From positions 943,118-1,007,117 of the forward strand of contig BCIN01000002.1 of NCBI GenBank assembly GCA_039545335.1: 64,000 bases of DNA, written 5' to 3'. Position 1 is the first letter of the stretch, and each line of letters begins with the position of its first letter. The notes beneath the pieces were generated by a model. The model was not told where the DNA came from and ran no database searches. It saw nothing but the letters and a program-made list of their open reading frames with translations. Source of the stretch: Kondoa subrosea. Lineage: Eukaryota. The position numbers and the translations under genes were made by a program. Of the stretch, positions 16,097-33,755 are shown one piece after another.

Positions 16097-18019
16097 ATGG
16101 GTCCTCCTTCTATACCGCCGTTGTCTATTCCCATACCTGCGAACGAATCGAAAAACGATCGCCTGGACAGGCAAGCGTTGGAAAGCCATGCACGACAGGA
16201 ATCGCTCAAGATAGATCAAGAAATCGAGAAAGCTAGGCAGGACAGCATACAGCGGTCGCGCTCTGAGGTCACTTTACTGTTGCTAGGGTATATCTTCTCT
16301 TGAGGAGCATGCTTTGAGCTAATGATCTCGCGAAGACCGCCAGACACAGGAAAGTCAACTCTAAAAATCCAATATAGGCTGCAATTCGATCGAGCAGCAC
16401 TCGACTCTGAGCGGCCATGTCTTCGCCTAGTGATCTTCTTGCAACTTATAGCAACAGTCGATGCGATGCTCACAGCTCTGGAAGACGACGTCCGATCGAC
16501 GCGGAATCATCCTGAAATGAGCAAGCAATCAATCGCAATGGCAATGCGACGTTTACGCTTCAGGCCTCTGTTTGCTATGGGTAGTGACTTGGCAAGCGAA
16601 ATAGGTGCAATTGATCTTTCAGCAATAAAGCCTGAAGGTCTACCGGGCGCCAACCTTTGGAGCAGTCAGAATTCTGTAATACAACGTCCTGGTTCCGCTT
16701 CTTCCACGAAAACATCGTTCGGATCTACCAGAGCCCTAGATGCCAATGCTATTAAGGGCAAGATGGAATTCAATATAATACCTTCGCGCTTCCAGAAGGC
16801 GAGAAAGTCGATAACTGAAGAGGGGAGTCCTCTGTCGAGACGGCTTGGAAAGAATGATCCAGGTCTTTTCCTCTTCCGCCAGACATGCTTCATCCCGTTG
16901 ATTTAGTCTCAGCGGCACTGCTAACGGGATATCACAAGGAAATTCGATGTCTGCGAGCCGATTTTCTAAGTCGGGCAGCAATAGCCGATGACAAACACCT
17001 TTCTTCTTCCAAATGGAATCTCTCGGACAGCAGCACTTTGTCAGTCTAGAGCCCGCATCCTCACTTTCTCGCTGACGTTTTGGTCAGCTTTCTTAATAAT
17101 CTCGATCGCATATCCGCGCCTGACTGGCTACCGGAAGACTTAGATCTTTTGAGGAGTCGTGTAGCAACTGTCGGTATAGATGAAGTCAGGCTGAATGTGA
17201 ACTCAATGGTAAGCAAAGCTCTTCGCAACAAGTGTACTTTCGATTCTCAACATTGCAAATAGACGTACAGAATATGTGTAAGCTGACCATAGGTGCATAA
17301 TGCTTGTCTGACTCGTCCGCCCAGGATGTCGCTGGTTCACGAGGCGTGCCCAGGGCCTGGTCAAAGTTTTTCGACCAGGCGCAATTGATCATTTTCGTCT
17401 GCAGGTCAGTATGAGCCCTTATATTAGTAGTGTATGCTGATTGTTTGTCTCTAGTCTGAGCAGCTTCGACGAAATAATGATGGTCGACGACGAGCGATTG
17501 GTCAACAAGCTGGAAGATGCACTGTCGACCTTCACAGAGATCTGCTCGAATCAGCTTCTGGCGAATTGCGATTTTGCATTGTTCCTCAAGTAGGTGTTGA
17601 TCTTCCCTGTAAACGTATATTTGACGAGCTCCTCGTACAGCAAAGTGGACTTGCTTCGCGCCAAGCTGAAGAACAGAAAGCATCCTGTCAAGCGCAACTG
17701 GCCTCGCTTTGATGCACCGGCAGACACTGCAGGTCGGTCTCCGTTCTTTTGTACTGGCGACTGCTAATGCGTGTATCTACACAGAGGCTGTTTCGGGCTA
17801 CTTCAAGCAAGCTTTTAGAGATCGATTTAAACGTGCGAATCGACAGCTGCAAACCTCTCGAACACTTCACGTGTACACGACATGCGCTCTGGATTCGTCA
17901 ATGCGTGTCGTGATTAGTGCCATCGAAGACTGTGCGACTTCATTGCCTATTCTTTGATCGATGCTAATAACCTTACAGCGATATTACGCAAAGTCCTCAA
18001 ATCAGTGGAATTCTTATGA
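16097..18019 (+). CDS. Atypical heterotrimeric G-protein alpha subunit (paralogue 2)
   Basis: SLKIDQEIEK, LLLLGPPDTGKST, DLLRSRVATVGIDE, DVAGSR, ALFLNKVD, VYTTCALD, C-terminal VLKSVEFL*. Confidence 0.85.
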
Positions 18020-18143
18020 GCAATAGCTGGTAGCTGAAATCATGATTGGTGTATTTCTATTTATGCTATGACGAAACTCAAAATACAAGTCTACTCTACA
18101 TTTGTATAATATAACAGGCTTGTCTAAAGTTCAGTTGATGTAT

Positions 18144-20487
18144 TTACAAGGGTCTCCTAGGTTTACGGTCTCTAGGAGTTTTGCGATCGAAAGCAAGCTT
18201 GCCAAGGATGTATGCTATCGCTCCTTCAGTCTTTCTTTTCAGTACTCTGGCCTCGTCTGGTACTGGAAAGGAAAGAGGCATTCGATAAGATAGCCAGAGG
18301 TAGAGAGACACAGTGCGGTGGAAGGATTCTAGAGTCGTGAGAGAATTGACGGAGAGCAAATGCTTGACAGCTGCTTCATCGCCTTTGCCTTCTGACAGCA
18401 GAACTATTTCTCTTACTAGATGCAAAGCTCCCGATCCTTGAGCGTAGGTTTGCAAATTGAAATAGCCCTTGCGACTGTGTTCGCTGACGAAAGCGTTGAA
18501 AGCGGCTTTGAGAATTTCGTCACGAATATTGACAGGCGCATTTGCCATAGTCAGCCGATCGTTCACAGACAAGTCTTTGTGTGGATCGAGCAGAGAAGCT
18601 ACTTTGATGTTCGGATGCTCGGGTTCGAGACGGTAATTGCTGCCCGTGATGCCGATCTGATGTATTACAGAAAGAATGTTTGATAGTTTGCTGTCGGGAT
18701 GGCACACGGAGAACATCTTGCTGACCATTGAAGCTGAAGGAACAAGAATGGCGCGTGTGAGATGAAGTATCGGCTTATCCATTGCTATTCGAACAGCGGG
18801 TAGGTCTTCCTTGTCCAAGGTTGTGACGATACCGACTGTAGGGTCAGTGGATGGAGTTTCGCTTGACGGCTCGTCTCCGATATCCGGAGCAGATGGTGAA
18901 GAAGGGACATGCATGCCAAATCGACCAGCCCTTCCGCCAATCTGCTTGACTTGAGGGAAAGCTAGAGCTACGACTTCTCTTCCGTCGAATTTGTGAACGG
19001 CTTCAAAGATGATGCGGCGGATTTTGCTGTAAGCAAGTACAAGCCTCATCAGCTGAAGCGGAAAGAGAGACATTGCTCGCTTACAGATTCAACCCCATAC
19101 CGATAGCATCACTTGCAACCATCACATCATAGCCTTCTTCAGAATTGAAGCTCCTCGCCTGTTCTTCACGCACTTCTGGCGGTAGACCACCATAAGCTAC
19201 AGCAACTTTGAGTCCAGTCTGCTGTTCGATACTTCTCTTGACGGCAAAGATATTGTTTCGACTAAAAGTGACGACGCAATCGCCTTTCTGGATTTGACTT
19301 AGATCGTTATTGAGACTGTAGTCTGCTACTTTGAGTGGACTGAGTCGTTGATATCTCCTTACTTCCACTTGATCACCCATTGAAGCCGCTATTCTTTGTA
19401 CTAAATCCACTGCGCTTTCTTCACCGCAAAGATGTAGCTCGGTGGCTTCAACAGAAAGTAGAGCGTTTGTCCAAGCAGCACCTCGAGCTGGATCTGCAAT
19501 CATTTGAATCTCATCCACCACTACTACATCATAATGTCTTCCTGACGGTAGCATTTCAACCGTGCAGCTTGACAAAGTATCCAAGGGGTCCATATATCGT
19601 TCTTCTTCCCCAGTCAAGAGATTGCAAGGTCTTGCTACTCCATTCAGACCACCAATTGCACCAGCATTGAAACGAGCGTAAACTTCATGCGCCAACAACC
19701 TCAACGGACCAGCGTAAACTCCAACTCTAGCTTGTGCTAATCTTGCTAATGCAGTATGTGTCTTTCCACTATTGGTAGGTCCAACATGCATGATGATCTT
19801 GCGTGATAGTTTCCTGGTAAAAGGGTACCATTCTGCTGGGTATCGATAATCGGTATTGATGAGAAGGGATCGTATCCGAGAAGATAATTCGCCGGCCGAC
19901 TCTGGTTGATCGGAAAGCCAAGTGAGGAAACTGCGAATCATTCTTCGATCGATAGCGATCATTCCCTCGGCTGCGTAATGACTTGAAAGCTCTTCGAAGC
20001 TGCCGCTATAGATAGTATACATCAGATAGATGTACTAAATCGGGCCCGACTGAACTAACAAATCGACTGTCTCTGTTTGATCCAGCTGATTCACCTGAAG
20101 CTCGCTCCATTGCTTCGCTAGCTTGACTAGTCCATGTAGCGGACGATGCAGAACGTGGGACAGAGTGACCAGAGATGCATGTGCAGTAGATTGTTGCGTT
20201 TCAAGCAAAGTCAATTTCTTGCGCAAAGCAATAACAGAAAGCTGTTTAGGATCTTCAACAAAAGCTGGCTTGCGTTGTTGGAACGGGTTATTCGGTCGAA
20301 TAGCATGTCGTTGATCCCTGCTTTTCTGTGCCAGTCCATAGCTATTCGGCCTCGAAGATCGTTTGCCAGCGAAATTAGTTCGACCGAAGGTCTCATCTAC
20401 TGTATAAGCAGGAGCTGTACGAAGGCGTCTGATTTGCTGAAAACATTGACGAAGGCTCTTTCGCTGTAAGCCAGAGAACACATTCAT
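18144..20487 (-). CDS. SUV3: Mitochondrial ATP-dependent RNA helicase SUV3
   Basis: [49 protein letters not shown] and LYLWLSYR motifs. Confidence 0.95.
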
Positions 20488-20580
20488 GCAAAAACCGACA
20501 AAGATGGTCGTACTCAATCAACAGCTTTACAATTACTAATACAGCTTTCAGGGAGTACAAGAGAGTTACAAGAGGCAAAT

Positions 20581-28983: not shown

Positions 28984-31637
28984 ATGGCGGATATCTTAGG
29001 CTTGATCACGACAAGTATTGATCTTGTCAACTGGTTCAAAGATACTGCAGACCAGGTTCGTTGCTTCCGCTCACAATGTGTTTAGTGATCACTAGTCTGA
29101 CTTTATACTTGTTCAGATCAAGGAGAATCGGCAAGACCTTGCTGAGATGACCGATGCACTTCATGCTCAAATGAATACTGCCGATCACCTTAGTAGAAAG
29201 CTAAGAGGAGCTATCGAAAGCTATCCGCATGGTTCAGAGGAATACGAAAGCGTTAAAAGGGACATAAAGAGCTTTCATGGGATGTTAGCGCTTTCTCTGA
29301 AGGTATGCTCATGATAACGATGATGTTTTCGAGCAGTCTCACAAGACGCAAGAGCGCACTGGAGAAACTTCGACCGAAACCTGGCGGGAACGCAATTGAA
29401 GCTCTCGCAACCTTTACAAAGAGCTTTTGGCAGAAGAATAAGATAAAGAAGGAGTTAGTAGGTTTGCATGCAGAACTGGATATGTACATGAGCGAAGCCA
29501 ATGTAGGTTTGCAATGTTTTCAGACGTTTTGGAAGAAAGCTAATCTTTGGTTTGGCTAGTATCGCAACATTATCTTGACCCAGATCACAACAACAAAGGT
29601 TGCTCTGCAGCAGTCGTCGAGCGATGCACGTCAGGACAAAGCACACCAGATACTACTGCAGAAGTCGGACCAAAACGCAGAAAAGATAATAAAGAACCTC
29701 ACAGACGAGTGTGCGCGTCTGCTTCTGGCTATAGAACAGAACGCTATTGCTAGAGCTCAAGATTTGGCGGTCGAAGAATTGAATCAGCCCATTGCCAATC
29801 TTCCAGATCATCCTTCCGCCATGACAATGGCTTCTATAGCTCGGTCAGAGGCTTCGGCTCTTCACTTCGACTACGCAGAATCCATTCGAGACACAATAGA
29901 CAGCGCAAAGAGCAATGCGCTTCCGGATGTTCTTCGTTATCTCGACGCAGCAGCCGTCAAAGCAAATCGCCTAGGCGAAGATGAAGATGCACTACTATTA
30001 CGAAGCATGCGAGAAAGATGGCAGCGTATCATCACACCGCTCGGACAAATCGATGAGCCAGAGATCGAAGCTGTGGAAACTGTTAATTTTGTCTGGGACT
30101 TTGCGCCGGTTACCAAACTCGTACAGCTTGTCACGAGATGTCAGCTTGCTGACACAGATGAAGAAAAGGAGAAGAGTATGCACGATTTGCATGACCACAT
30201 CGGTGCGTTGATCCTCCGTCTTTAACGTGCAATTTGGCCAATCCTTGATCTTTGCAGACTGTTTCGCCCCTGCGATACTGATTGTTCGAACTCCTAAGGC
30301 AATCACCTTCCTAGTCGAATCGTTGAAGGATTGCAGTCGCCGCACATATGCTCTACATTGTTTCTCTGCCCTTGTAGGTACGTGGTTCTTTCTTGCACAT
30401 TGAATTATCGCTGATCTGCTACAACAGTCTTTCCCACAGTCGTTACAGCTTTGGGGTACATAGGATTTTTGAAGTCCGTGGCGGCGCTATTAAATGGCAA
30501 GGAGTTGAGTGAAACGGCCACGGAGGCAGCTTGTGGGTGTTTGAGACAATTTTCAAGTATGCTCCTAGTCTCAAGGGTCTGGAGCTCTCGTTCGCTTATC
30601 GAATACTCTCGTCACAGGGTGCTCGGAAGGGAAAGGTCAAATTCTGTCAACTGCGAATGTCTTGCGAGCTTTGCTGGCCTTACTTCAAGACGGGACATCT
30701 ACAATGAAGATGCAAGCTGCTGGGTGTCTTGCGAACCTCACAGGTTTGCTTCTGATCTCAAACCTTTGATCATTGAGCTTCCATCGGCTCACCTAAACAA
30801 TTCTTTTGCAGACTCTAATGAAGGAAAAGCTCAGATCTTGGCAAACCAACATTTCTTGCCCGCTTTATCAGCTTTACTTCAGAGTGATACAGCTGAAGGG
30901 AAAACGGAAGCTGCTGGGTGTCTTGCGAACCTCGCAGGTACGCTTCTGATGCTCAAACGTCTGATCATAAGCTTCCATCGGCTTACCAGAACAATACTTT
31001 CGCAGTGTCAAATGAAGGGAAAGATCAGATCTTAGGAGATGAACATTTCTTGCCCGCTCTGTTAACTTTGCTTCAGAGTGGTACGCCTGAGGGAAGAGCT
31101 GCTGCTGCTTGGTGTCTTAAGAACCTCGCAGGTACGCTTCTGATTTTAAAAATGTCTGATCATTGAGCTCCCACCGGCTCACGGGAGAAATTCTGTCACA
31201 GGATCAGACGAAGGCACAGCGCATATTTTGGCAAACCAACATTTCTTGCCCGCTCTATTGACTTTACTTCAGAATGGTACGCCTGAGGGGAGAGCTGCTG
31301 CTACTTGGTGCCTTGAGAATCTCGCAGGTACGCTTCTGATTCTCAAACGTCTCATCATAAGCTTCCATTGGCTCATCTAAACAATTCTTTCGCAGACTCA
31401 AATGAAGGAAAAGCTCAGATCTTGGCAAATCAACATCTCTTGCTCGCTCCATTAGCTTTGCTTCAAAATGGTACGTCCGAAGAGAAAGCTGCTGCCATTA
31501 GGTGTCCTGCTCGGCTTCCTGATGAAAAATTCTCCCTCTCACGCAACTCCATTGCTGACTCTCTTCCTGGTGAAGAATTCTCCCTCTCATGTAACTCCAT
31601 TGCTGATTCTCGAGCGCAGTGTCTGTACAAGATATAG
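28984..31637 (+). CDS. Armadillo-repeat protein with N-terminal helical (MLKL/HeLo-like) domain
   Basis: Exon 1 MADILGLITTSIDLVNWFKDTADQ, exon 2 IKENRQDLAEM...; C-terminal 42-aa repeats such as DSNEGKAQILANQHFLPALSALLQSDTAEGKTEAAGCLANLA match the ARM consensus. Confidence 0.8.
30618..31520 (+). repeat. Tandem ~194-bp exon+intron cassettes (126-nt exon + 68-70-nt intron)
   Basis: Exons 30618-30743, 30812-30937, 31006-31131, 31202-31327 and 31396 onward. Introns share GT(AC/TT)GCTTCTGAT..TCAT..AGCT(T/C)CCA..GGCT(C/T)A..CAG. Confidence 0.95.
31515..31610 (+). repeat. 48-nt direct duplication in the last exon (LPDEKFSLSRNSIADS / LPGEEFSLSCNSIADS)
   Basis: Two adjacent near-identical 48-mers are visible. 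Confidence 0.85.
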
Positions 31638-32174
31638 ATGTTGAAGGCCAAGAAGAATTTCATACAGATTAAGGATTTACAGGATTTTCTCCTTCGAGCA
31701 GTGAGAATTGCATTTCGATGCCTTCTCGGGAAGAGAAAGTCTGACCGTGCTGTCCGATGGCAATAATGAGTCGTGTTGAGATGGACTGCCATTGTAGAAG
31801 CTACTTGATCCATAAGCCTGCATTAAAACCCACGAAGGAAAGCTCCCCACTGCCGACTCTCGACAGCTGCTATAGAAACTCCTCTTGCCGAACTACGCCC
31901 AAACATTTTTGTGAAAGCTGTTTATATCGCCGCTTGCAAAAACTCAGATTCACACTCGCTGAACCGACAGATCGATCAATGTTGCGAAACAAAACCCATA
32001 TTCGCATAGCTCTTGGTATGTTACATGTTTTCTCCTTACATAGTCCAACGCAGATGTTCCGGCGAGCAATTCTTTCCCGCTATCTGAGCACTATACGACG
32101 ATGACCGTCGGTGCGCTAGCGGTGTAGCAAATTGAGGGTTCCGCTTCTTGCCCGGTGGCCCTTTCCGACTCGTC

Positions 32175-33755
32175 TCAAGCTGCATCTACCCGGACCCATA
32201 TTGGCCATTCATTTTCCCAATCAATCTCCGCTTGAATTGTGCAGTATTCGCAACGGCATTGACCAGTCTCTTCATGATGTTCCCTCAAGCAAGACTTGCA
32301 GAGATTGAGCGCCATATGATAGGTCTTGACGTCCTTGCTAGGTTGAGCTACCCAGCGCCGCATCATGTTAGTCTTCGTCCTTTTTCGGAGGGCAGAAGTA
32401 TTGACAGCCTCGGACAAAGCTGTATCATACCTCCATCTTGTCGCTTCAACAATGCGGTACGACTTCATTTTGATCAGATCATAACAAGAAGAATGGTAGA
32501 GATGAGGTGTCCCAAACGGTGTGAGAAAGATCTCGCATGATTGACAATGAAAGCTGTCGCAATTCAATAAGGGTGCAAGATGCATTGGCAATTCGACATT
32601 CTCTTCAGAAGTATGTTGCTTGAGTAGATGCATACAGCTCGACAGGAGACTTGGTATTGCATGACTGGTCTTTGCCAAGTTCCAGTCATGAGGTAGAGCA
32701 CGGAATTTTGACAATTTGATATTGTTGTAGAGGCTTATTCCGTTGATTTTCTGGAAGCGAGTAAGTGATGGCACGAAGCCTTCGAAGCTGTTGTGGTCCA
32801 GATTCAAGTAGCGAAGGTTAGGAAGACTGCTTGCCAAAGACGCAGGAATAGCTATCTAACGATGAGCTAGACTTTAGGCACAGTGAGAGAAACACTTACT
32901 AGAAAGCAAGTTGTGAGAAAGGTTCAACGACCAATACTGCTGTAGAATGCTAGGTACTAGATCCTCTTGCGAATCGAAAGACATATAATACTCCACTAGT
33001 TCACGAAATTGCTGAAGACATATCGGTACTGCTTGCAGCCGCTGATTGCTGAGGTTCAGGTAACCGTCATCTAGGCCCAGAAGTACTGCTTCAATCGAAT
33101 CCAGTACGATCTGACAGCAAGCGCCTTCGAAGTTCACAAAAGACGGAAATGGCCTCTGGGGTTCCATTAGACATGATACGACAGACAGAATAGTAACTCA
33201 CTTGTTCGATAGCTGTCCTAGCTAAGCGCCATCCCCCACATGGTCGAAGCCTTTCGAACTTGCGCAGTAGAAGCGACCCTTTGGAAGATGTACGGCTCTC
33301 GATAGACTTGAGCTTCTTCAATATGTGCAATTCCTTTCGATCTGCTGTCAGATCAGCATAGATCCAGACCAGAAGTCACTGAGACTCACATATGATAGGT
33401 TTGGCGAAGCCTGGCATTCCGAACGATCCAGCAATGCAGTCGCTCAGTTGTCTGTATGATCGCTCAGCTTTGATATGCAGTGTCCATGCTGAGCCTACTG
33501 TAATGCAGACAGATCCTCGACATTTCTACGTCCCTTTAAGCAGTCCACAAATCGGCGAAACTTGCGTCTTTCCAGAAGTTTCACAAGCCATGGTACAGCT
33601 GGTATGTCAGGTCTATTGTGATAGAAGCTAGGACCGGCTTCCTGCAAGTCTGTTTGAGGTATCTCTGTTTCTTGCGTAATTGGTTCTAGGTCGAGAGGCT
33701 CTTCATCTGAGCTTTCTGAGTCGCTGGTATCTCGTTGCTTTGGTATACGTGGCAT
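32175..33755 (-). CDS. Leucine-rich repeat protein with Cys/His-rich C-terminus
   Basis: YLNLSNQRLQAVP, LNLSHNLLSS, LRYLNLDHNSFEGFVPSL and ISLYNN LRRs; C-terminal CQSC, CKSC..EH and C.C..C. Confidence 0.75.

Follow-up and report, generated by a model that had tools for sequence, protein, structure and literature searches.

Gene structure and genomic context

The window, which is the whole 64-kb stretch of DNA analysed here, carries on its forward strand a gene (28984-31637) of 11 exons and 10 GT-AG introns of 50-70 nt, with 681 codons and a TAG stop, and the neighbouring genes are housekeeping ones (carbamoyl-phosphate synthase, Suv3, a Rrp6-like exonuclease and D123). By homology the window falls closest to Microbotryomycetes and other Pucciniomycotina, with no more than 57-67% identity, while an Atlas comparison of a Suv3 fragment gave no taxonomic information. 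Joining the exons by their coordinates yields a single open frame that starts with the ATG at 28984 and closes with the TAG at 31635-31637, and an in-frame stop lies four codons upstream of this ATG. The 681-codon frame is coherent only once all ten introns, each of which has kept its GT-AG borders and a branch-like motif, are taken out. Judging from these signals, the gene is predicted to be spliced according to the 11-exon model, probably constitutively, and the weakest junction of the model is the acceptor of intron 2 (AAG at 29350-29352). For annotation purposes, this means that the protein becomes visible only after ten short introns have been removed. The array described below is not an assembly artefact, since two Logan assemblies (two DNA runs of one sample) each cover 29900-32100 with one contig, showing 0 differences and no joints. 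No other copy of any exon of this gene was found by BLASTN or TBLASTN on either strand of the 64-kb window.

The N-terminal 345 residues of the encoded protein have no family match, and its C-terminus consists of seven armadillo (ARM) cassettes of one exon each, two of them old and five belonging to a tandem array. The protein would comprise an all-helical N-terminal region of about 345 residues and, towards the C-terminus, an armadillo solenoid with seven or more repeats, one per exon. The features of the locus are as follows.

28984-29055, + strand: exon 1, N-terminal helical-looking region, no family match
29117-29302, + strand: exon 2, N-terminal helical-looking region, no family match
29353-29502, + strand: exon 3, N-terminal helical-looking region, no family match
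29560-30202, + strand: exon 4, linker of about 214 codons without detectable relatives
30258-30377, + strand: old cassette A, exon of 120 nt in phase 1/1 with a divergent ARM-like repeat
30428-30556, + strand: old cassette B, exon of 129 nt in phase 1/1 with a divergent ARM-like repeat
30618-30743, + strand: cassette 1, 126-nt hybrid exon, old in its 5' part and array-like at its 3' end
30744-30811, + strand: array intron 1, 68 nt, GTTTGC...CAG, 75-82% identical to the other three array introns
30812-30937, + strand: cassette 2, 126-nt exon, Pfam Arm match
30938-31005, + strand: array intron 2, 68 nt, forming with intron 4 the closest intron pair (60/68)
31006-31131, + strand: cassette 3, 126-nt exon, helix-3 W and N as in importin-alpha-type repeats
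31132-31201, + strand: array intron 3, 70 nt, diverging most from the other array introns (75-78% identity)
31202-31327, + strand: cassette 4, 126-nt exon, forming with cassette 3 the closest cassette pair (31/42 residues)
31328-31395, + strand: array intron 4, 68 nt, homologous to the other array introns
31396-31521, + strand: cassette 5, degenerate last repeat opening the final exon, no intron after it
31515-31611, + strand: 48-nt tandem duplication (Tandem Repeats Finder period 48, 2.0 copies, 89% matches, score 159)

Anatomy of the tandem array

A first-pass annotation of this DNA had described four exons of exactly 126 nt, in phase 1 at both ends, followed by a fifth cassette that opens the last exon, and both direct reading and a coordinate script confirmed this anatomy. 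Each 126-nt exon ends on the first base of a split codon, so that the flanking introns are in phase 1, and the rule of one repeat per exon in phase 1 extends to the older cassettes of 120 and 129 nt. These two upstream cassettes, A and B, had been missed in the first-pass annotation. The array introns (68, 68, 70 and 68 nt) are all GT..AG, with CTCAC, CTTAC or CTCAT as branch-like motif, and are indeed homologous to each other as claimed, with pairwise identities from 51/68 to 60/68. Tandem Repeats Finder reported the array with a period of 194 (4.0 copies, 78% matches, score 922, 30714-31491) and also with a period of 390 (2.0 copies, score 1001), and a self-BLASTN of one unit against the window recovered the remaining copies with E from 1e-24 to 1e-51, far beyond chance.

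At the nucleotide level the exons of cassettes 2-5 are identical at 91/126 to 102/126 positions (72-81%), and at the protein level all cassette pairs share 18-31 of 42 residues (43-74%). This moderate identity implies that the duplications are old and that whole units are not undergoing homogenisation at present. The older cassettes are far more divergent: against cassette 2, A is 18% identical and retains the invariant L, A and C columns, and B is 25% identical and also gave a weak TBLASTN match at 30466-30543. At the other end of the array, the 48-nt duplication encodes a 16-residue tail that is repeated twice.

Armadillo identity of the repeats

The repeats are armadillo repeats, as had been proposed. 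Cassettes 1 to 4 matched Pfam PF00514 (Arm) with 26.7, 28.6, 31.3 and 27.6 bits, respectively, above the curated cutoff of 20.6 bits, which amounts to four of the five array cassettes. Cassette 5 and the old cassettes A and B were unmatched in these exon-wise scans (4/7 cassettes matched overall). In phmmer comparisons with the PDB, residues 7-41 of cassette 3 aligned with each 42-residue module of designed armadillo proteins, W and N included, at E=1.1e-12, a value that sums one cassette over six modules, and the same cassette matched importin-alpha chains at E about 1e-7. A profile of cassettes 2-4 retrieved 44 PDB sequences at E<=0.01, nearly all of them importin-alpha or designed or engineered armadillo-repeat proteins. 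Each exon therefore corresponds to one structural repeat, in register with the solved modules of designed armadillo proteins.

In importin-alpha-type repeats, the face of helix 3 around a conserved asparagine binds peptides, and by analogy the repeats described here may bind peptides as well. In solenoid caps it is normal for the last repeat to be degenerate, and cassette 5 may be read as a putative C-terminal cap. The helix-3 peptides quoted in the first-pass annotation (MQAAGCLANL, TEAAGCLANL, AAAAWCLKNL, AAATWCLENL and AAAIRCPARL) are correct.

Origin of the array and mosaic similarity

We consider it likely that the armadillo array of an ordinary protein-coding gene of a basidiomycete-like fungus was built by tandem duplication of an exon together with its intron. 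The last five repeats would derive from tandem duplication of a 194-bp unit made up of a 126-nt exon and its intron of about 68 nt, the likely route being unequal crossing-over or slippage between adjacent repeats. On one occasion or more the copied block probably spanned two units (390 bp), in keeping with the period of 390 and with five informative columns that group units 1 and 3 against 2 and 4. The unit is symmetric in phase and brings its own splice sites, so that each copy adds exactly one 42-residue repeat in frame. Purifying selection would then have acted on the copies as they diverged, keeping the buried core fixed while surface positions of helices 1 and 3 came to differ between copies, as in armadillo proteins whose repeats touch different parts of a partner. 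Later exchange between copies by gene conversion is likely.

The cassettes had been described as mosaic, with 2 and 5 sharing their 5' half and 3 and 4 their 3' half, and both match counts and change-point tests bear this out. Of the 63 positions in each half, cassettes 2 and 5 share 56 in the 5' half but 39 in the 3' half, and cassettes 3 and 4 share 46 and 56, respectively. In change-point permutation tests, the change points of pairs 2/5, 3/4 and 1/2 lay after exon columns 70, 36 and 96, with p=0.0015, 0.0025 and 0.002, respectively. Cassette 5 differs from cassette 2 at 8/70 columns in its 5' part and at 23/56 in the decayed helix-3 part. Cassettes 1 and 2 differ at 41/96 columns up to exon column 96 but at only 1/30 beyond it, and the array reported by Tandem Repeats Finder begins at 30714, within the exon of cassette 1. 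Such heterogeneity is not predicted by simple duplication followed by uniform divergence, and needs either gene conversion or uneven constraint. The ratios of transitions to transversions among cassettes 2-5, looked at for a RIP-like bias, were only 21:16 to 26:14.

The phase symmetry of the exons had been taken to permit in-frame skipping, duplication or shuffling through recombination in the introns. The first part of this proposal stands, as the frame survives when a unit is gained, lost or skipped, and duplication is evident. The second is unsupported, since the detectable change points lie in exons. Introns are in fact dispensable as crossover sites, because any register of the 194-bp unit gives the same in-frame product.

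It is possible, although we lean towards doubting it, that the array is still partly homogenised by short gene-conversion tracts between adjacent units, which introns and some exon segments would tolerate and specialised exon segments would resist. The near identity of cassettes 1 and 2 over their last 30 columns would fit such a tract, and the intron that follows is only 81% identical. Incompatible partitions also adjoin one another along the exon (12 against 345, 125 against 34, 13 against 24, and 25), and a PHI-type test on cassettes 1-5 was significant (p=0.001-0.003). Introns 2 and 4 match at 60/68 positions, while the exons next to them match at 91-97 of 126. However, for cassettes 2-5 alone, with 8 informative sites, the PHI-type test was not significant (p=0.35-1.0), and the hybrid nature of cassette 1 might reflect no more than the boundary of the original duplication. 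Uneven constraint also explains much of the pattern, helix 2 being conserved in all pairs and helix 3 of the last repeat being decayed.

Divergence of introns and exons

The divergence of the array introns bears on the same possibility. Their mean pairwise p is 0.20 (CI 0.14-0.27), close to that of codon positions 1+2 (0.19), and it is lower than that of silent sites (third positions 0.33, CI 0.25-0.42; four-fold sites 23/75 = 0.31), a direction that is unexpected for neutral introns and that homogenisation could account for. The CIs for intron and third-position divergence nevertheless overlap. Splice signals in short fungal introns slow divergence, though removing 17 splice-signal columns changed the intron value little (0.22). 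A consensus fold of the four array introns gave a 6-pair hairpin over the branch region (-5.9 kcal/mol, covariation 0) and no competing-structure element.

Within the exons, Nei-Gojobori pN/pS was 0.21-0.54 in the nine of ten cassette pairs for which it was computable, a ratio that compares paralogous cassettes of one gene. For cassettes 2-4 it was 0.28 in helix 1, 0.17 in helix 2, 0.44 in helix 3 and 0.36 overall. Five exposed helix-3 codons gave a value of 1.4, to which we attach no weight, as they were picked because they are variable and contain about 11 nonsynonymous and 4 synonymous sites. The variable helix-3 positions are 32, 33, 35, 36 and 39 of 42, around the conserved asparagine. 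Helix 3 thus varies as described in the first-pass annotation, but the contrast drawn there with a conserved framework held only in part, since in cassettes 2-4 helix 1 varies at as many positions as helix 3 (6 each) and only helix 2 is nearly fixed.

Search for relatives and the receptor hypothesis

Pfam scans were run exon by exon and not on the joined protein. In exons 1-3, at E<=10, they returned only a DUF6468 match at E=0.015, whose 15.8 bits fall short of the 26.9 set as cutoff, and in the non-repeat exons as a whole they found no NACHT, NB-ARC or other P-loop NTPase domain at E<=1 or E<=10. Exon 4, with about 214 residues, is the sole place roomy enough for a NOD, and no match was obtained there. 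Of 3821 word-sharing candidates between 374 and 2000 residues long, none was homologous to this linker at E<=1e-3. It had no usable match in the Atlas, only two coiled-coil chance matches in the PDB and, in a metagenome scan, 596 pattern matches with 0 relatives. Its single-sequence AlphaFold2 model is all-helical with a mean pLDDT of 53.1, too low for use.

A profile of the cassettes was compared with 1.84 billion representative proteins and yielded 328 matches at E<=1e-3 and 0 at E<=1e-30, the best match reaching 105.8 bits over 8 stretches; no close relative of the cassette gene was found among these proteins. Thirty of the 150 listed matches were scanned with Pfam and all proved to be ARM or HEAT proteins of a generic kind, combined with diverse partner domains (ion channel, NACHT, PARP, ART, U-box, SAM, kinase, dynamin, BTB and TPR), and of the ten top matches that were looked up, the 4 that carry names are all from algae or protists. 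In a phmmer comparison of the joined N-terminal 345 residues with the 150 listed proteins, no match had an E below 0.13. One protein with a U-box and a superficially similar N-terminus (P0007) was rejected as a relative, as it had no BLASTP similarity to exon 2 and matched the linker exon only at chance level (best E=1.4). When an alignment of three cassettes was compared with metagenome contigs, it matched 2 loci over 16-24 residues, and these are not relatives. Within the 64-kb window, BLASTN and TBLASTN on both strands revealed no other, orphan, inverted or inactivated cassettes, the next-best match after the array itself being 19 nt long (E=0.01). Array introns of only 68-70 nt leave no room for orphan cassettes inside them.

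The absence of homologues for the non-repeat exons and the loss of the Arm signature in cassette 5 might suggest a decaying or non-functional gene, whose repeats would be functionless leftovers of duplication. We find this hardly credible, given a frame uninterrupted over 681 codons and 11 exons, ten GT-AG introns with branch-like motifs, a between-cassette pN/pS well below 1, and the fact that degeneration of the last repeat is the usual state of a solenoid cap. A role as a protein-binding scaffold may be suggested instead, and only by analogy, as the non-repeat part has no known relatives.

The first-pass annotation had gone further and proposed a diversity generator for a non-self recognition receptor. 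According to this hypothesis, the cassettes would form an evolvable or splice-variable surface of an immune-type receptor, in which crossing-over, conversion or exon skipping yields diversity. The uniform 126-nt phase-1/1 exons with one repeat each and homologous introns are what it would lead one to expect, as are the mosaic similarity between cassettes and the variable helix-3 positions around a conserved asparagine, on the face known for peptide binding. In addition, the start of the protein may resemble the N-terminal helical domains of fungal cell-death or STAND proteins. One-repeat exons of 42 residues also have a precedent in candidate receptors (PMC3341825).

We nevertheless think this hypothesis improbable. 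A receptor role finds no backing in the exon-wise Pfam scans, which detected no NOD or other signalling domain and, in the non-repeat exons, neither NACHT nor NB-ARC, and the cassette identity of 43-74% contrasts with the >85% over >=100 residues given for fungal NLR repeats in PMC4986451. The notion of a diversity generator fares no better, with pN/pS of 0.21-0.54 between cassettes and 0.44 over helix 3, change points in exons and not in introns, neither a second locus nor an extra, orphan or inverted cassette within the 64 kb, and no related cassette gene among the 1.84 billion representative proteins. A related idea, to which we also give little credence, is a sensor lacking a NOD, in which an unrecognised N-terminal helical-bundle domain for execution or signalling would be joined directly to an armadillo ligand-binding solenoid. 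The number of cassettes and the helix-3 surface would vary between isolates, by unequal crossing-over and conversion among the 194-bp units, or between isoforms, by in-frame skipping of the 126-nt exons. If it were true, the well-kept introns would be homology tracts or splicing elements, and the gene would represent, in a fungus and with armadillo repeats, what the receptor candidates with one repeat per exon represent in brown algae. Should isolates differ in cassette number, or transcripts skip cassettes, this would be a fungal intron-containing armadillo variable binding domain outside the NLR architecture, but our observations lean in the opposite direction.

Comparison with known systems

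Fungal NLRs with highly internally conserved WD, ANK or TPR/HEAT repeats, for which repeat-based generation of diversity has been proposed, were described by Dyrka et al. 2014 (PMC4986451). They resemble the gene reported here in their C-terminal superstructure-forming repeats, with units of about 42 residues that arise by internal duplication. The present gene differs in having no NACHT or NB-ARC domain, a repeat identity below the level used there as a criterion and, as far as paralogous cassettes can tell, no sign of positive selection. Its repeats are also split by introns, and the word 'intron' occurs 0 times in the available text of that paper.

Another structural parallel is provided by the brown alga Ectocarpus, in which ROCO (LRR) and NB-ARC-TPR genes carry each repeat on its own exon, an arrangement proposed as a source of allelic or isoform diversity (Zambounis et al. 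2012, PMC3341825). As here, there is one repeat per exon, of uniform length (42-residue TPR exons) and symmetric phase, so that in-frame rearrangement is possible. In Ectocarpus, however, the loci belong to multigene families that carry GTPase or NB-ARC signalling domains, exchange cassettes between loci, contain inactivated or inverted orphan exons inside introns and are reported to be under diversifying selection, whereas within the window we found no gene family with signalling domains, no orphan exons and no cassette exchange, and pN/pS is below 1.

Exact exon length is likewise a feature of the Tetrahymena LRR genes, which contain arrays of exactly 90-bp exons with phase-2 introns (Xiong et al. 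2019, PMC6564038). The likeness includes a single intron phase, a junction codon common to adjacent exons, and repeated duplication of an exon-intron unit through unequal crossing-over. In contrast to the five cassettes found here in one gene, that system comprises tens of thousands of LRR exons in thousands of genes of a ciliate.

With importin-alpha and the designed armadillo proteins (PDB 5mfm, 5aei, 1ee4), the gene shares the 42-residue three-helix repeat in the same register. Of the helix-3 W and N of those proteins, both are kept in cassettes 3 and 4 and only N in cassettes 1 and 2. This likeness is confined to the level of the repeat, as the gene has no importin-beta-binding domain and its N-terminal region is unrelated.

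The likely history of the array resembles the internal tandem duplication of repeat-encoding exons surveyed in animal, plant and yeast proteomes by Bjorklund et al. 2006 (PMC1553488), a form of 'exon shuffling' in which one exon-intron unit is duplicated. In that system, as here, a repeat flanked by introns of the same phase is duplicated head to tail and takes its intron along, so that the domain grows by whole units, and blocks of several units are copied too, which is suggested here by the period of 390 beside that of 194. The available text of the survey makes no mention of armadillo repeats (the word 'armadillo' appears 0 times), and the present case differs in its short array of five units, its introns of 68-70 nt and its setting in a small-genome fungus. 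Duplication of repeat exons is an ordinary route of growth for repeat proteins, and our results change no concept in this respect. If the duplication of exon plus intron that we favour is correct, the locus would be a tidy, textbook-style example of solenoid growth by such copying in a poorly sampled branch of the basidiomycetes.

Structure of the armadillo-repeat gene

Joined by coordinates, the exons of the gene form a single unbroken frame of 681 codons in 11 exons, whose 3' end is an array of five cassettes, each of them one armadillo (ARM) repeat in one exon.

28984-29055, 29117-29302, 29353-29502 and 29560-30202 (+): exons 1-4
30258-30377 (120 nt) and 30428-30556 (129 nt) (+): exons 5-6, two older, divergent ARM-like cassettes
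30618-30743, 30812-30937, 31006-31131 and 31202-31327 (+): cassette exons 1-4, each exactly 126 nt
31396-31637 (+): last exon, opening with cassette 5 (31396-31521) and ending at the stop

The frame opens at an ATG, four codons downstream of an in-frame stop, and closes at a TAG (31635-31637). All ten introns of the model (50-70 nt) are GT-AG at their predicted junctions, the least secure of which is the acceptor of intron 2 (AAG). The C-terminal tail right after cassette 5 carries a 48-nt tandem duplication (31515-31611, +; 2.0 copies, 89% matches), by which a 16-residue motif without family match is present twice in the tail.

Taken singly, cassettes 1-4 score 26.7-31.3 bits against Pfam Arm (cutoff 20.6); cassette 5 and both older cassettes lie below Pfam Arm detection. 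In the PDB, cassette 3 pairs position by position with every 42-residue designed armadillo module (E=1.1e-12) and with importin-alpha, its helix-3 tryptophan and asparagine falling on the matching residues of the designed modules, and a profile of cassettes 2-4 retrieves the same targets. The tryptophan-asparagine pair of importin-alpha-type repeats is kept in cassettes 3 and 4; of the two residues, cassettes 1 and 2 have just the asparagine. By analogy with such repeats, the solenoid most likely offers a protein- or peptide-binding surface. Since the array introns sit in the loop leading from helix 3 to helix 1 of the next repeat, one exon equals one structural repeat.

Exon-by-exon Pfam scans of the non-repeat exons gave no credible family, and exon-wise scans found no NACHT, NB-ARC or other P-loop domain. 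The linker encoded by exon 4 (214 codons, queried as 213 residues) has no homologue among the longer proteins of a 5.8-billion-protein collection, nor in the Atlas, metagenome contigs or the PDB; folded alone, exon 4 yields an all-helical model that is unreliable (pLDDT 53.1).

Anatomy of the cassette array

The layout described in the first-pass annotation, four 126-nt exons of phase 1 at both ends and a fifth repeat opening the last exon, with introns of 68, 68, 70 and 68 nt, is recovered by sequence reading of 29400-32400 and by a coordinate script. Two bases at the 5' end of each 126-nt exon and one at its 3' end belong to split codons, and the four introns are all GT..AG. Tandem Repeats Finder reports a period of 194 bp, the length of one exon plus its intron (30714-31491; 4.0 copies, 78% matches, score 922), and a higher-scoring period of 390 bp (30714-31495, +; 2.0 copies, score 1001). 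Five informative columns put units 1 and 3 together against units 2 and 4, which along with the 390-bp period suggests a duplication step in which two cassettes were copied as a block. Cassettes 2-5 are identical pairwise at 91-102 of 126 nt, and cassette 1 stands farther off (70-84 of 126); the introns, pairwise identical at 51/68 to 60/68 positions, are homologous between cassettes, as had been proposed. One unit matches its sister units in the window with BLAST E values of 1e-24 to 1e-51, and beyond these nothing on either strand falls below E=0.01. Two independent Logan assemblies of one sample, the only one found to contain this DNA, are identical over the stretch (0 differences), so the array is not an assembly artefact; the window itself probably comes from that sample, which is hence not an independent isolate.

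Directly 5' of the array, and absent from the first-pass annotation, lie the two older cassettes. These 120- and 129-nt exons are followed by introns of 50 and 61 nt, and share 18-25% identity with the array cassettes, with invariant L, A and C columns in common. Because they too hold one repeat per exon in phase 1 at both ends, the one-repeat-per-exon layout is older than the array, which is its latest extension.

Mosaic similarity and selection

Along the exons, the cassettes resemble one another more unevenly than chance would allow. Between cassettes 1 and 2, differences number 41 in the first 96 exon columns and 1 in the final 30 (p=0.002); for cassettes 2 and 5 the counts are 8 of 70 and then 23 of 56 (p=0.0015), and for cassettes 3 and 4 they are 15 of 36 and then 9 of 90 (p=0.0025). 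A PHI-type test gave p=0.001-0.003 for cassettes 1-5 (24 informative exon sites) and was not significant for cassettes 2-5 alone (8 sites); mutually incompatible groupings (12 versus 345, 125 versus 34, 13 versus 24, and 25) stand side by side along the exons. Given the pairwise unevenness and the test on all five cassettes, "mosaic", the term first applied to them, is a fair word. The recombination in introns invoked at the same time does not fit, as the change points are exonic and the start of the array, too, lies within the first cassette exon; nor is it needed, since unequal exchange at any register of the 194-bp unit stays in frame. Part of the mosaic pattern may instead reflect uneven constraint in place of conversion, as helix 2 is fixed and the cap repeat decayed.

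The array introns (within 30744-31395, +) show a mean pairwise difference of 0.20 (bootstrap CI 0.14-0.27; 0.22 without splice-signal columns). The corresponding figures in the cassette exons are 0.19 for codon positions 1+2, 0.33 (0.25-0.42) for third positions and 23/75 (0.31) for four-fold sites. Because the intervals overlap, the better preservation of introns than of silent sites counts as no more than a tendency. Candidate explanations are conversion that introns tolerate and specialised exon segments resist, and constraint on very short introns; apart from a hairpin of six pairs covering the branch region, the array introns hold no conserved structure.

Between cassettes, pN/pS (Nei-Gojobori) is 0.21-0.54 in nine of ten pairs, the tenth being saturated, and by region in cassettes 2-4 it is 0.28 in helix 1, 0.17 in helix 2 and 0.44 in helix 3. 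Six variable positions lie in helix 1, six in helix 3 and hardly any in helix 2; the invariant helix-3 residues A34, C37, L38 and L41 are what we take to be the buried core, placed via the register with solved armadillo modules. Five helix-3 codons give a pN/pS of 1.4, which carries no evidential weight, having been chosen because they vary and offering about four synonymous sites. The overall and helix-3 ratios, and the lack of a second cassette copy on both strands of the 64-kb window, lend no support to the proposal that the cassettes generate diversity. Plain internal tandem duplication of the exon-plus-intron unit within an armadillo-repeat gene is the best-supported explanation: at least one step would have taken two units together, the copies would then have diverged under purifying selection, and some exchange between them probably took place.

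Relatives and genomic setting

A profile of all seven cassettes gave 328 matches at E<=1e-3 among 1.84 billion representative proteins and none at E<=1e-30, the top match (105.8 bits) being spread over eight stretches. Thirty of the 150 listed matches were scanned and proved to be generic ARM or HEAT proteins whose partner domains vary widely; ten listed matches were looked up, and the four with names are all algal or protist. Metagenome contigs scanned with the cassettes gave just two matches, of 16-24 residues. One listed match, P0007, is a pelagophyte alga protein of 679 residues. It has an N-terminal helical region without assigned family, a U-box, and armadillo repeats that seem to differ very little among themselves. 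The parallel in architecture is superficial: outside the repeats BLASTP gave no significant similarity, with no match to exon 2 and nothing better than E=1.4 for the linker exon.

The 44 ORFs scanned in the window include housekeeping genes (carbamoyl-phosphate synthase, Suv3 helicase, Rrp6-like exonuclease, D123 and an AMP-binding enzyme). The Suv3 fragment (gene 17189-20517, -) is nearest to Microbotryomycetes and other Pucciniomycotina at only 57-67% identity, and the contigs of the sample's two runs sum to about 19 million letters, which suggests a small-genome fungus from a poorly sampled basidiomycete branch. Close relatives that might bear an orthologue are absent from the databases, so that calling the gene unique would be less secure. 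A neighbour on the opposite strand (32175-33200, -), convergent with the ARM gene at its 3' end, contains an open frame of 226 residues with a weak leucine-rich-repeat signal (LRR_4, below cutoff at E=4e-4); no link between the two is evident.

Comparison with known systems

The fungal NLR phenomenon requires, by definition, repeats with more than 85% identity across 100 residues or more (PMC4986451), whereas the cassettes have 18-31 of 42 residues in common. This and the lack of a NACHT, NB-ARC or other P-loop domain in our scans count against a non-self receptor. In Ectocarpus, receptor candidates with one repeat per exon belong to families in which loci undergo exchange and introns contain orphan and inverted exons (PMC3341825); the introns here are too short to hold a cassette. 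The reading of the array as a diversity generator for a non-self receptor thus has no support in the tests run, and does not match the features that define the families invoked. The structural half of the first-pass interpretation is sound but commonplace. Our limited literature search found nothing on armadillo repeats encoded one per exon, and we do not claim that the arrangement is unpublished. Duplication of this kind is already well described by Bjorklund et al. 2006 (PMC1553488), with precedents in the Tetrahymena arrays of 90-bp LRR exons (PMC6564038) and in Ectocarpus.
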